Under the pieces are notes generated by a model, which saw only the letters and a program-made list of their open reading frames with translations, did no database searches and was not told where the DNA came from. The position numbers were made by a program, and so were the translations under genes. A stretch of 64,000 nucleotides of DNA, from the NCBI RefSeq assembly GCF_049075655.1, contig NZ_CP157522.1:1088001-1152000 (forward strand), written 5' to 3'. The DNA comes from Methanothermococcus sp. Ax23 (GTDB lineage Archaea; AGJL01; Methanococci; Methanococcales; Methanococcaceae). The stretch's first letter is position 1. The number at the start of each line of letters is the position of its first letter. This document shows, piece by piece, positions 36,930 to 59,219 of the stretch.

Positions 36930-37010
36930 ATTTATTGAATTTTAAATTATAAATTATTAAACTTATTTTTTTACGATAAACCGCCGAGAAAGCCAACGAT
37001 TTTAATCGTT

Positions 37011-37047
37011 ATACAAAACATAGTTTTGTAAAATCTCTTACGAGATT
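37011..37047 (+). repeat. 37-nt double-hairpin insert within the IS left-end hairpin
   Basis: tacaaaac-ata-gttttgta + aatctc-ttac-gagatt splits ccaacgattttaatcgtt|gg; present in all full copies. Confidence 0.7.
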
Positions 37048-37373
37048 GGATGAGAGGCGCACATCATTTTTTTTATATACTCCACTACATAATATATGAG
37101 TGTAATTAGAATAATAGCATATATATAAATTTGGTGAATTCCATGCAAGTAACCAGAGTGCTGACAATAAACCTAACCAGAAGTTTAAATAATGAACAAT
37201 TAATAATCATAAACCATTTAACCTATTCAGCATCAAAACTCTGGAATACATCCAACTACGAAGTAATACAGCGAAACATTAAACCAAATAAAATAGATGT
37301 TCAAATGAAGAACAACTTCTGGTTTAAAAACCTGCACTCACAGTCAGCACAGGCAGTATGTCAAAAACTTCAA

Positions 37374-37420
37374 ATTAGACGAAAACCTTCGGTTTTCGTT
37401 GCTCGCTTGCTACGCAAGCG
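37374..37420 (+). repeat. 47-nt double-hairpin cassette (frameshifting) in tnpB
   Basis: attagacgaaaacc-ttc-ggttttcgttgc-tcgcttgc-tac-gcaagcg. Confidence 0.85.
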
Positions 37421-37813
37421 ATTGCATGGCAAAACTACTTCAAACAACACACTAAAAGACCACGATACCAACCAAAAGATGGACACTTTCCCGTAAAATG
37501 GAAGAAGCAAGGTTTCAAAATCATAGGCAATAAGTTAAGATTATCCTTATCTAAACAAACTAAAAACTATCTCAAAGAGAAGCATGGTATCAAGTGCAGG
37601 TATCTATGGGTAGGGTTATCGAAAACTCTACCGCTTGATACCATGCAGGTTAAAGAAGTTGAGATAGTTCCGCAGACCATCTATGGGATAACCTACTACA
37701 TACTTCACTTAATCCATAAGAAACCAGTAATTCAAGAACCTATCAAAGAAGGTAATATATTAAGTATTGATTTAGGAATTAAGAATTTAGCAACAGCAAT
37801 AACAAACACAGGT

Positions 37814-37861
37814 ATCAGGCGAAAACCTTCGGTTTTCGCTACTCACCAACATCAGTTGGTG
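37814..37861 (+). repeat. 48-nt double-hairpin cassette (in frame) in tnpB
   Basis: atcaggcgaaaacc-ttc-ggttttcgctac-tcaccaac-atca-gttggtg; removal gives TNTG-KAVIYDG. Confidence 0.8.
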
Positions 37862-38550
37862 AAAGCAGTAATCTACGATGGAAGAAGGTTAATTTCTAAA
37901 TTCCGATGGTTTGCTAAAACAAAGGGGAAAATACAGTCTGCACTAACAAAACAGGAGTTAAAGAATAACAAAAGATTATCACACTTAACAGTAAAGGAGA
38001 AAAACTACACTAAGGATTATCTTCATAAGGTCAGTAAGATGATTGTTGATTTTGCAGTAGATAATAAAGTTTCAAGGATTGTAATCGGCGAGTTAAACAA
38101 AGGTATTTCAAATATTAATATTGGTAGAAAGAACAACGAGAAAATACACAAGATACCTTTTGGTAGGTTAGTAAGTATGATACAGTATAAAGCAGAGGAA
38201 AGGGGATTAACAGTAGAACAGGTTAATGAATCTTATACTTCTCAAACTTGTAGTAATTGTGGTGTGGTTAAAAAGAGTAATAGGAAGTATAGGGGTTTGT
38301 ATGTGTGTAGTGAGTGTGGTATGGTTTTGAATGCTGATATTAACGGGGCTTTGAATATTTTAAAAAAAGTATTTTCATGTAGCGTAGCCCTGAACCCGTT
38401 AATGGGTAGGGGTAGTGGGCTTGGCAACCCATGTAGGGTTAGACCCTGCTAAAGAACCCCACGATTTTAATCGTGGGAGTATGTCAGGTTATTAAAAATT
38501 TAAATAAAAATTTAGATAATTTATAACATGCTGAATTATCGGTGAAAAAA

Positions 38551-43822: not shown

Positions 43823-44540
43823 TATTATGGATAAACTACAAACTGTAAGAAAAATAGTCCAGTCGGCATTTTTTATAAAATTTGTAATCTTATCAGCCGT
43901 TCTTTCAAGCTTCTTCTGCCTGTGCATTTTTGGATATATTGAGCAATTCATATTGATGGGGAGTATTTATTTCGTTCCCGTTGTGGTTGTAATATCCTTG
44001 CTCACAATAATTTTTGGAAGAGTATTTTGCGGTTGGATGTGTCCATTGGGTTTTATTTTTGATTTAACATATAAGTTAAGAGTTAAGTTATCAGGGTTAA
44101 AAAAACTTCCAGAAGTTCCAAAAAACATCCACAATAAATTAAAATACTTAAAATATGTTATGTTGGTGTTATTCATTATATTAACATACCATTTTACAAC
44201 ATACGCCTATTGTTCAGTATGTCCTATCGGAGCTCTCACAAACTTATCTGGAACTCTAATTTCATTTGCCATTCTCGTCGGATTTATAGTATTGGGGTTC
44301 ATATATCCCATGGCATTTTGCAGATATTTCTGTCCAATAGGGGCATTACTTGGGCTACTTTCTATAAAACCCATATTTAAATTGAAATTAAATGATAAAT
44401 GTGTAAAATGTAGAATGTGCGAAAGAAAATGTCCAATGCAGATAGAGCTTACTGAAAAAATAGAACAGCATGAATGTATAAGATGCTTTGAATGTATAAG
44501 TTCATGTAGGAAAAAAGGAGTTGATTTTACCTTTAACTGA
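43806..44540 (+). CDS. Membrane 4Fe-4S protein (NapH/MauN-like)
   Basis: GRVFCGWMCPLG, CSVCPIG, FCRYFCPIG, two CxxCxxCxxxC; stop codon supplied by MITE end. Confidence 0.85.
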   Translation: MNFLSDIMDKLQTVRKIVQSAFFIKFVILSAVLSSFFCLCIFGYIEQFILMGSIYFVPVVVVISLLTIIFGRVFCGWMCPLGFIFDLTYKLRVKLSGLKKLPEVPKNIHNKLKYLKYVMLVLFIILTYHFTTYAYCSVCPIGALTNLSGTLISFAILVGFIVLGFIYPMAFCRYFCPIGALLGLLSIKPIFKLKLNDKCVKCRMCERKCPMQIELTEKIEQHECIRCFECISSCRKKGVDFTFN

Positions 44541-44908
44541 CCTACTCCAACGAGTGAACTCGTTGGGTTCTCGCTTACGGTAGTAAGCGAGCAACGAAAT
44601 CACGAAGTGATTTCGTCTAATTTTAGTAGGGTTTAACCCTACACGGGTGGCCAAGCCCACTACCCCTACCCATTAATGGGTTCAGGGCTACGCTATGCAC
44701 TTCCAACCACTACCAGCGGTAGAGTTTTCACTAACCCCACCCATAGATACTTGGACTGGTAGCGTTACTTACTACTAATCTTCATATATTTATATTTTAC
44801 TACTTACTAGCCGATATAATGTCCGCCTCTCATCCAATCTCGTAAGAGATTTTACAAAACTATGTTTTGTATAACGACTGAAGTCGTTGGCTTTCCCGGC
44901 GGTTTATC
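44537..44908 (-). mobile_element. Non-autonomous IS605-derived element (MITE/PATE) copy A, 372 bp
   Basis: Same TTTAC|GATAAACC left end and TCAG right end as the tnpB element; no ORF. Confidence 0.92.
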
Positions 44909-47160: not shown

Positions 47161-47536
47161 CTGACCTACTCCAACGAGTGAACTCGTTGGGTTCTCGCTT
47201 ACGGTAGTAAGCGAGCAACGAAATCACGAAGTGATTTCGTCTAATTTTAGTAGGGTTTAACCCTACACGGGTGGCCAAGCCCACTACCCCTATCTCCGTT
47301 TAGGAGATTCAGGGCTACCTTTTGAATTTCCAAACACTACCAGCGGTAGAGTTTTCGATAACCCTACCCATAGATACTTGGACTGGTAGCGTTACTTACT
47401 ACTAATCTTCACATATTTATATTTTACTACTTACTAGCCGATATAATGTCCCGCCTCTCATCCAATCTCATAAGAGATTTTACAAAACTATGTTTTGTAT
47501 AACGATTAAAATCGTTGGCTTTCTCGGCGGTTTATC
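47161..47536 (-). mobile_element. IS605-derived MITE copy B, 376 bp
   Basis: Nearly identical to copy C (one difference seen); empty site restores ELIH-VNNNK in frame. Confidence 0.93.
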
Positions 47537-53676: not shown

Positions 53677-53772
53677 GTTGGATTTATTACAAACTTTTTA
53701 TTGCAGTTTTTACATGGTATTTTTGTATTACTACTCCATTTGAGGTTGTGTATTTCCCACATCACTTACTTT

Positions 53773-53857
53773 CTGACCTACTCCAACGGGTGAACTCGTT
53801 GGGTTCTCGCTTACGGTAGTAAGCGAGCAACGAAATCACGAAGTGATTTCGTCTAAT
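53773..53857 (-). mobile_element. Isolated MITE right end (cassette + RE hairpin + TCAG)
   Basis: Matches the last ~85 nt of MITEs A-C; begins exactly at the cassette start. Confidence 0.85.
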
Positions 53858-57015: not shown

Positions 57016-57104
57016 GGCGCGGGGTGCTGTGCCTGGTGGCACAGGGCGGACTTCAGATCCGTCAAGTTCGTTTGAACTCGGGGTTCGATTCCCCCCCAGC
57101 GCCG
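57016..57104 (+). tRNA. selC: tRNA-Sec (anticodon UCA at 57053-57055)
   Basis: Long acceptor stem, long D stem ctgtgcc/ggcacag, gcgga-cttcaga-tccgt anticodon arm, long variable arm, 4-bp T stem with GGTTCGATTCC; T-run downstream; no encoded CCA. Confidence 0.96.
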
Positions 57105-58843: not shown

Positions 58844-59219
58844 GATAAACCGCCGAGAAAGCCAACGATTTTAATCGTTATACAAAACATAGTTTTGTAA
58901 AATCTCTTACGAGATTGGATGAGAGGCGGGACATTATATCGGCTAGTAAGTAGTAAAATATAAATATGTGAAGATTAGTAGTAAGTAACGCTACCAGTCC
59001 AAGTATCTATGGGTAGGGTTATCGAAAACTCTACCGCTGGTAGTGTTTGGAAATTCAAAAGGTAGCCCTGAATCTCCTAAACGGAGATAGGGGTAGTGGG
59101 CTTGGCCACCCGTGTAGGGTTAAACCCTACTAAAATTAGACGAAATCACTTCGTGATTTCGTTGCTCGCTTACTACCGTAAGCGAGAACCCAACGAGTTC
59201 ACTCGTTGGAGTAGGTCAG
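58844..59219 (+). mobile_element. IS605-derived MITE copy C, 376 bp
   Basis: TTTAC|GATAAACC...GGTCAG; intergenic. Confidence 0.93.
58987..59219 (+). ncRNA. Putative omegaRNA-like transcript within the MITE (also in copies A and B)
   Basis: TATAAATA at 58959-58966 about 20 nt upstream; covarying stems shared with tnpB mid-gene and tnpB 3' end. Confidence 0.55.

Follow-up and report, generated by a model that had tools for sequence, protein, structure and literature searches.

A conserved, covarying RNA structure inside tnpB of an archaeal IS605-type element is retained in the MITEs of the element

TnpB, from which Cas12 descends, is under development as a very small genome editor; in current practice, the guide RNA of TnpB is taken to be the ~100–230 nt at the 3′ end of the tnpB gene. 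Derivatives of IS200/IS605 elements, the PATEs and MITEs, encode guide RNAs, according to the accessible part of one report, which also links the HgcC RNA family to tnpB 3′ transcripts (Gomes-Filho 2015, PMC4615843), and, in the accessible part of another one, these elements are described as often encoding omegaRNAs that are used by TnpB in trans (Meers 10.1101/2023.03.14.532601). In the portion of Nety et al. 2023 (PMC10278001) that is accessible, an internal region of the AmaTnpB mRNA (nt 825–875, beside RuvC-II) is described as modulating DNA cleavage by the particle, with a proposed action via complementarity to the omegaRNA, and AmaTnpB is described as trimming the RNA 5′ of a 106-nt scaffold. 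Here, we describe a module that, compared with these systems, is a second RNA element within the coding sequence: a bipartite hairpin in the middle of tnpB that is conserved under selection on the sense strand, both in the coding tnpB and in non-coding MITEs.

The window, that is, the entire analyzed stretch of 64 kb (C1:1088001–1152000 of genome G000), is archaeal DNA with 32% G+C and holds one full-length IS605-type element that encodes only tnpB (36974..38487, + strand), along with three of its MITEs. The element is preceded by a TTAC target (36970–36973), begins with the left-end hairpin CCAACGATTTTAATCGTT..GG, and terminates with the right end ...GTATGTCAG; these ends are common to 9 further full-length copies and ~28 MITEs. 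The assignment to the IS605 family comes from the matches of the ORF to the Pfam domains OrfB_IS605 and Cas12f1-like_TNB, the TTAC on the 5′ side of each of the four window copies, the hairpins at both ends, and the Y1 tnpA gene that immediately precedes tnpB in the orthologous elements of G014, G007, G017, and Fervidobacterium. The 1.67-Mb G000 genome encompasses 9 close full-length copies of the element, one copy that is 71% identical, and 28 MITEs carrying the core of the module. No match to the Y1 (IS200/IS605) transposase was detected in this genome, which is 98.9% complete, despite the presence of 10 tnpB copies and ~28 hairpin-ended MITEs. Neither an orthologue of this tnpB nor the module was found in 12 genomes of the same genus, suggesting that the element arrived in the G000 genome horizontally. 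A tRNA-Sec gene is also present in the window, at 57016–57103 (Rfam RF01852, 64.5 bits).

The tnpB gene of the window copy (37143..38452, + strand; delineated by three-frame translation and compared with the intact copies at C1:431440–432824 and C1:1300967–1302447) is split into an N-terminal part (37143–37373) and the remainder (37421–38452) by a 47-nt double-hairpin mini-insert (37374–37420) that shifts the frame. Copies of this mini-insert frameshift tnpB in 7 of the 10 full-length copies, with both halves of the ORF still open. The mini-inserts comprise a family of 37–52-nt “double-hairpin” units with the consensus ATTAGACGAAAnnnnTTCGnnnnTTTCGTTGCTCGCTTnC..GnAAGCGA, in which both hairpins covary. 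Additional sites in the window are 37017–37053, in the left end, ~37810–37864, 44571–44620, and 59136–59185; mini-inserts also occur in the scaffold and in the loop of the module described below, and further copies are dispersed through the genome, mostly in intergenic regions. The mini-inserts could represent a tiny mobile element or could be excised from the transcripts; contigs without them exist in the RNA libraries, including one that skips 37374–37420, and might derive from copies that never had the insert.

The 3′ portion of the element contains an omegaRNA-type guide-RNA scaffold of ~105 nt (38384..38487, + strand), which overlaps the C-terminus of tnpB and the right end, such that the guide would start at 38488; this scaffold is conserved across the orthologues, from archaea to bacteria. 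A full-length match to the Rfam family HgcC (RF00062) was produced by the right end (38392–38500), with 24.6 bits and an E value of 0.0038, below the gathering score of 50, and, at gathering score, no Rfam family matches the orthologous IS elements or the MITEs from other genomes; hence, the omegaRNA type of these elements is not covered by a curated Rfam family.

The module (37582–37646) lies in frame within tnpB and is built from an outer stem of 14 bp, an inner stem of 9 bp, and, between them on the 5′ side, a bulge of 13 nt. The perfect 13-bp stem around the bulge and the inner hairpin, which was noticed in the initial annotation, is exactly as described, with GCATGGTATCAAG (37582–37594) pairing with CTTGATACCATGC (37634–37646), and is extended by a wobble pair, U37595 with G37633. 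The 5′ arm of the outer stem (37582..37595, + strand) encodes H-G-I-K and the 3′ arm (37633..37646, + strand) encodes L-D-T-M; 9 of the 14 outer pairs change on both sides among the tnpB homologues. The bulge (37596..37608, + strand) has the consensus CCAAGU..(C/U)UAUG and reads GCAGGUAUCUAUG in the window copy. The inner stem GGTAGGGTT/AACTCTACC (37609–37617 with 37624–37632) encloses the loop ATCGAA; as RNA, this inner hairpin (37609..37632, + strand) is GGUAGGGUU/AACUCUACC with the loop AUCGAA, and five of its nine pairs change on both sides. Elsewhere, the loop accommodates mini-inserts of 41–45 nt, in frame in the tnpB of G015 and also in the MITEs of G017 and G007. The module encodes ...HGIKCRYLWVGLSKTLPLDTMQ in the tnpB frame, approximately at nt 440–505 of the ORF, in the third of the gene that codes for WED/REC, and lies ~610 nt from the left end of the element, with ~840 nt separating it from the right end; the distance to the start of the scaffold, initially given as about 750 nt, is 737 nt.

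Chance can be excluded as the origin of this structure. A search of the 64-kb window for inverted repeats (≥13 nt, within 60 nt) yields 10, of which the module alone combines perfect pairing with separated arms; the remaining nine are AT-rich (eight overlapping palindromes and one imperfect hairpin). The predicted sense-strand fold of the tnpB module has an energy of −33.3 kcal/mol (z = −6.1, with none of 200 shuffles as good), compared with −27.2 kcal/mol for the antisense strand, and the window contains four occurrences of the 33-nt core, where 0 are expected. We considered and rejected the possibility that the module is an insertion similar to the mini double-hairpins: the peptide it encodes aligns with standard TnpB, even in a 38%-identical paralogue, and the length of the core keeps the frame. 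An additional predicted helix, ACUAUCUCAA/UUGAGAUAGU (37560–37571 with 37660–37671), surrounds the module in the tnpB of G000 and G006; it is only partly kept in the other orthologues and is absent from the MITEs.

Comparison of tnpB homologues supports the paired structure. In the 71%-identical copy of the G000 genome, both stems are kept by compensated changes (C-G to U-A and A-U to G-C in the outer stem; in the inner stem, three changes of G-C to A-U and one of G-U to G-C), and the encoded peptide changes from VGLSKTLPL to IRLPKILSL. Orthologues of tnpB were identified at 61–68% identity in seven genomes of a sister family (genus g5) and in G038, and at 66–36% identity in contigs labelled as a Persephonella MAG, Thermoanaerobacter, a Synergistota MAG, Fervidobacterium thailandense, a Heimdallarchaeota MAG, and a Desulfosporosinus MAG; all these archaeal and bacterial orthologues, including the most distant one, at 36% protein identity, fold alike at the same codons. 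The module slice of the Persephonella-labelled contig (L035, 2.5 kb) is letter-identical to that of G006, a genome of the Methanocaldococcus family, which suggests either that the contig was mis-binned or that the transfer is very recent. No comparable fold was found in the relatives at 35–39% identity from Bacillus, Oscillospiraceae, and Methanococcoides (L043, L044, L046–L049).

For the covariation analysis, an ungapped, codon-registered alignment of 23 slices (22 distinct) of 74 nt was used that was fitted to no structure and from which duplicates, the G015 copy with its 45-nt loop insert, a Bacillota MAG (L053) with an analogous fold in another register, and all MITEs were left out. Across this alignment, 95.8% of the 506 cells pair, compared with 30–42% when the partners are slid by 1–3 columns. 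Both sides are altered in 14 of the 23 pairs, and none of 500 shuffles reaches any of the five measures, although the shuffle counts overstate independence because the sequences are few and related; the slid controls are unaffected by this. Another line of evidence comes from synonymous sites: in a codon profile of 14 ORFs, three of them badly picked (L058, wrong ORF; L041, partial; L045, over-long), the synonymous-codon identity is 0.66–0.77 over amino acids 146–167, compared with ~0.35–0.6 elsewhere, and the sole other peak in tnpB is at the 3′ scaffold (0.9–0.95). A conserved internal promoter upstream of the tnpB module was rejected: the synonymous identity in that region (amino acids 131–140) is the lowest in the gene (0.33–0.39), and the RNA contig depth shows no step at the module.

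A covariance model derived from the tnpB alignment detects the module in 10 of the 40 Methanococcales genomes. In the G000 genome, this model produced 38 matches, and blastn with the module core produced 39 hits, including two in which the palindrome matches itself in antisense. The search of five non-Methanococcales genomes (bacterial and Heimdall) gave 15 model hits, all 15 of them inside tnpB, and independent MITE types in bacteria were rejected on these grounds. A pattern scan of metagenomes yielded 37 loci, 13 of which contain the module; all are tnpB or the known MITE type, plus a decayed copy that was seen twice.

The MITEs are the second context of the module. MITE C (58844..59219, + strand) consists of the left end, a TATA-like box, the module, a linker, and the scaffold, the latter containing a 50-nt mini-insert at 59136–59185. 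The module of MITE C (58987..59047, + strand; 61.4 bits with the R1 model) shares the core with the tnpB module but, as described in the initial annotation, is closed by a different, 11-bp outer stem, AACGCTACCAG (58987–58997)/CTGGTAGTGTT (59037–59047), and has predicted folding energies of −27.6 kcal/mol on the sense strand and −19.3 kcal/mol on the antisense strand; the TATA-like box TATAAATA (58959..58966, + strand) is located 20 nt upstream of the first paired base. The other two MITEs are on the minus strand, at 47161..47536 (module, 47333–47393) and 44537..44908 (module, 44705–44766; TATA-like box, 44787–44794). A solitary 86-nt fragment (53772–53857) is 98.8% identical to the mini-insert and right end of a MITE, with neither a left end nor a module nearby. 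By blastn, the MITEs match positions 8–108 (left end), 634–676 (module core), and 1421–1528 (right end) of the IS, so the initial observation that the module is the only internal segment of tnpB they keep holds, apart from a match to the separately inserted mini-element of the IS.

In addition to G000, MITE-type modules are present in G011, G014, G039, G017, and G007, for a total of six Methanococcales genomes. The MITEs of the other genomes bear the ends of the local orthologous IS together with outer stems of their own; these stems vary by MITE family (CGCTACCAG/CTGGTAGTG, TGTCCCCAG/CTGGGGACA, and GCCCCCAG/CTGGGGGC), for example, UAUGUCCCCAG/CUGGGGACAUA and GCCCCCAG/CUGGGGGC in other genomes vs CGCUACCAG/CUGGUAGUG in G000. 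Among 16 distinct MITE modules from the six genomes, 99.1% of the cells pair and 10 of the 23 pairs change on both sides, in an alignment fitted to the covariance model, which favors pairing; slid-partner controls over the tnpB and MITE alignments reach only 30–59% pairing. The bulge motifs CCA(A/C)GU and UA(A)UG are retained in the MITEs although they are noncoding there. Thus, covariation and synonymous-site constraint, the lack of which among homologues the initial annotation named as evidence against a functional module, are both observed.

The layout of the MITEs resembles a transcription unit. A TTTATATA-like box is located 20–24 nt upstream of the stem in five MITE families, with this spacing seen in the families of G014, G017, G007, and G039. 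Given the usual archaeal promoter geometry, which would put the transcription start at the foot of the stem, the TATA-like box is a putative promoter. The scaffold (GUAGCCC...) starts 13–16 nt after the MITE stem, or 44 nt in one subfamily of G000, in agreement with the initial remark that the MITEs join the module closely to the omegaRNA region; the predicted MITE RNA is ~180–195 nt long before the guide. The MITE linker resembles the tnpB sequence immediately 3′ of the module (GGUUAAAG.., GUUGAGA..), so the MITE lineage probably arose once, with one deletion junction common to all families. Under a single origin, only the later compensated changes, and not the retention of the module as such, count as independent evidence.

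The non-canonical pairs indicate the strand. G-U exceeds A-C by 35 to 6 in tnpB and by 51 to 1 in the MITEs, and the U-G pair at the junction persists in 21 of 22 tnpB sequences and in all 16 MITE sequences, extending across homologues the preference for the sense strand that was noted initially; this bias fits a sense-strand RNA and fits the top DNA strand too. RNA data from two hydrothermal metatranscriptome runs (X1 and X2), in the form of summed mean depths of assembled environmental contigs, with only the covered parts of the window taken as evidence, provide a hint: at the MITE module core (44729), the depth is 1018 in X1 and 85 in X2, compared with 81 and 21 at 9–19 nt upstream of the module (44775–44785) and 1520–2084 and 316–435 over the MITE scaffold (44627–44668), where these values sum ~28 MITE copies along with relatives and other organisms and do not resolve RNA ends, strand, or true levels. 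The left-end depth of 112 in X2 fits the MITE pattern poorly. Within tnpB, the depth at the internal module (37603) is 21 in X1, with no cover in X2, and that over the tnpB body (37448–38269) is ~31–50 in X1 and ~1–13 in X2; contig depth over the 3′ scaffold (38384–38487) is 260–669, compared with ~21–50 in the tnpB body. The tnpB-internal module is not enriched in these contigs relative to the rest of tnpB (21 at 37603 vs 27–34 further downstream).

The reading we prefer, with about even confidence and on the basis of sequence comparison, is that the module, which a single clade of IS605-family elements encodes within tnpB, is an accessory RNA part of the TnpB/guide-RNA particle and the 5′ domain of the MITE guide transcript. 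In a MITE, transcription would start from the TATA-type promoter at the foot of the outer stem, with the module as the 5′-terminal domain of an RNA that would continue through the 13–16-nt linker and the ~105-nt omegaRNA scaffold into the flanking guide. The module would act with the TnpB/guide-RNA particle and not in translation alone. The handle recognized by the protein would most likely be the bulge CCAAGU...UAUG together with the inner hairpin; it might recruit or load TnpB onto the RNA that carries the module and might also stabilize the 5′ end of that RNA. In the full-length element, where the mRNA carries the handle 737 nt ahead of the scaffold, freshly synthesized TnpB could be held on the transcript that encodes it, which would serve cis loading or self-regulation. 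The sequences themselves show the structure, how it is conserved, its strand, and where it is placed in the MITEs; the start site in the MITEs, the binding of TnpB, and an effect on activity are all putative. The argument for an accessory part of the particle is one of a common denominator: the compensated structure in the ORF-less MITEs cannot be explained by a purely translational role, and the location of 15 of 15 modules inside tnpB in five genomes makes a purely MITE-related role insufficient because the function must exist without MITEs; as neither role alone suffices, the machinery of the element itself is what the two contexts share, and a module of the particle is favored. Precedents are the internal stretch of the AmaTnpB mRNA by which cleavage is modulated (PMC10278001) and the PATEs as sources of guides used in trans (Meers 10.1101/2023.03.14.532601). 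The absence of enrichment of the tnpB module in the RNA contigs and the chance-level bulge–scaffold pairing are points against this reading; furthermore, if TnpB trims the RNA here as described in the accessible part of the AmaTnpB report (PMC10278001), the module would be cut off the mature guide.

A more far-reaching and decidedly doubtful proposal is that this clade of TnpBs uses a two-part guide RNA, in which the mid-ORF hairpin, released from or presented by the mRNA, and the 3′ scaffold would meet on the protein, with the MITEs as the fused, streamlined form. If true, a natural equivalent of split guides like tracrRNA:crRNA would exist at the level of transposons, and the choice of RNAs that TnpB accepts would have a new determinant. 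The initial annotation had proposed a split or long-range omegaRNA module; in the MITEs, the module does lie within the predicted guide transcript, at its 5′ end, but a pairing between the bulge and the scaffold is not supported. When the 13–14-nt bulge of each element was run against its own scaffold with RNAduplex, the same site, G(A/G)UAGUGGGCUUGGC, was the best one in 10 of the 15 elements, and one compensated change was observed (CCAAA with UUUGG, in Thermoanaerobacter). In duplex energy, however, the real bulges do not outperform shuffled ones (500 per element; z, +1.0 to −2.05), and the CCACG variant of the bulge in three MITE families breaks the pairing; for these reasons, a bulge-to-scaffold kissing interaction or pseudoknot was not adopted.

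Several readings that do not involve the particle have to be weighed. An unlikely one is that the module controls the tnpB mRNA, as a mid-ORF hairpin that pauses ribosomes or blocks 5′-to-3′ decay and so sets the dosage of TnpB or protects the guide-bearing 3′ part, with the MITEs keeping the hairpin as a generic 5′ stabilizer. Because 5′-terminal hairpins protect bacterial mRNAs from 5′-end-dependent decay, the predicted 5′-terminal position in the MITEs fits this possibility, as do the high stability of the hairpin (−33 kcal/mol), the in-frame presence of the module in every full-length copy and its confinement to tnpB in the five bacterial and Heimdall genomes (15/15), and the tolerance of the inner loop to 41–45-nt inserts, which is expected if stem stability alone matters. 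However, the bulge, CCA(A/C)GU...UA(A)UG, and the greater part of the inner stem are nearly invariant in the MITEs, whereas the outer stem drifts, which argues against a generic stabilizer, for which no bulge sequence is needed; moreover, the compensated substitutions in the ORF-less MITEs are unexplained by translation, and the contig depth, admittedly weak evidence, shows no step at the tnpB module. Highly improbable is the null reading, under which the palindrome is a by-product of coding constraint that survives in the MITEs by historical accident. The probable single origin of the MITE lineage and the fact that the core encodes conserved TnpB residues (S-K-Y/F-L-W-V..L..K.LPL) are compatible with it, but the pairing is kept where the peptide differs (VGLSKTLPL vs IRLPKILSL, with three compensated inner-stem pairs), 14 of the 23 pairs covary in tnpB, synonymous sites are constrained, the stems are held by double changes in the noncoding MITEs, and the slid-partner controls fall far short of the observed pairing (30–59%).

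Quite unlikely, too, is a role at the DNA level, namely, that the module acts as a top-strand ssDNA hairpin aiding the “peel and paste” transposition of IS200/IS605, either as an extra contact for TnpA or as a fold-back that affects the handling of the excised strand or of the lagging-strand template. This is a true IS605 family, with the Y1 tnpA directly upstream of tnpB in the orthologous elements named above, and such elements are described, in the accessible part of the source, as moving in the form of top-strand ssDNA with functional hairpins (Meers 10.1101/2023.03.14.532601). The LE and RE hairpins are on the tnpB sense strand, G-T wobbles would favor this strand as well, and MITEs must transpose but need not be translated. 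Against these points, the TnpA of the studied systems, IS608 and ISDra2, requires only the subterminal LE and RE hairpins, and the module resembles neither end hairpin. Furthermore, the module has a conserved 13-nt bulge and many wobbles (51 of 337 cells in the MITEs), and the fixed spacing to the TATA-like box, with the scaffold adjacent in the MITEs, is the layout of a transcription unit; the G000 genome lacks a Y1 transposase, yet its 38 modules are well kept, although these might be young.

If the module is indeed an accessory part of the particle, guide loading, stability, or self-control in this clade would need more than the known scaffold: an RNA element within the coding sequence that is under strong selection, shows conservation spanning hyperthermophilic archaea, Thermotogae, and Firmicutes, and fronts the predicted guide transcript in the gene-less copies. 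The module would also explain how non-autonomous MITEs compete for TnpB that is made elsewhere, and it is a candidate missing part where TnpBs of this clade perform poorly with minimal guides.

The closest counterpart of the module is the TnpB omegaRNA/reRNA (sotRNA, HgcC-like). The module is part of the same element, on the same strand, and, in the MITEs, part of the same predicted transcript, 13–16 nt upstream of the scaffold; like the omegaRNA, it overlaps coding sequence with constrained synonymous sites. Unlike the omegaRNA, the module of the full-length element is located 737 nt upstream of the scaffold, away from the right end, and does not touch the guide; in the MITEs, it adjoins the scaffold and not the guide. 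Compared with the processed AmaTnpB scaffold, 106 nt long according to the accessible part of the source (PMC10278001), the scaffold here is already of equal length (~105 nt) without the module. No Rfam 15 family, HgcC and IS605-orfB included, matches the module at gathering score or at E values up to 10. The cis-inhibitory region of AmaTnpB, as presented in the accessible part of that report, is similar in that it is internal to the tnpB coding RNA, is outside the mature guide, and bears on the activity of the particle, a property that the module would share; however, no conserved structure is reported for it there, whereas the module is a self-contained, covarying hairpin, and, unlike the complementarity proposed for the AmaTnpB region, that between the module and the scaffold does not exceed chance. 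The LE and RE hairpins of IS200/IS605, which are bound by the Y1 TnpA, are likewise on the top (sense) strand and kept in non-autonomous derivatives, but the module is internal, not subterminal, and bipartite with a 13-nt bulge, differs in sequence and shape from both end hairpins of the element that carries it (CCAACGATTTTAATCGTTGG and CCCACGATTTTAATCGTGGG), and is placed relative to a promoter-like box, whereas the latter are placed relative to the cleavage sites. Our literature searches, which covered texts outside supplements and most subscription papers, retrieved no description of an internal tnpB structure, in line with the initial impression of novelty. The MITEs described here are of the same kind as the PATE/MITE elements, with a left end, a right end, the scaffold, and no ORF, in ~28 copies, but add a piece from the middle of tnpB between the promoter-like box and the scaffold that is not mentioned in the accessible parts of the PATE/MITE reports. 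Judging from these comparisons, the module is most likely an extra conserved, apparently undescribed RNA part of OMEGA/TnpB elements.
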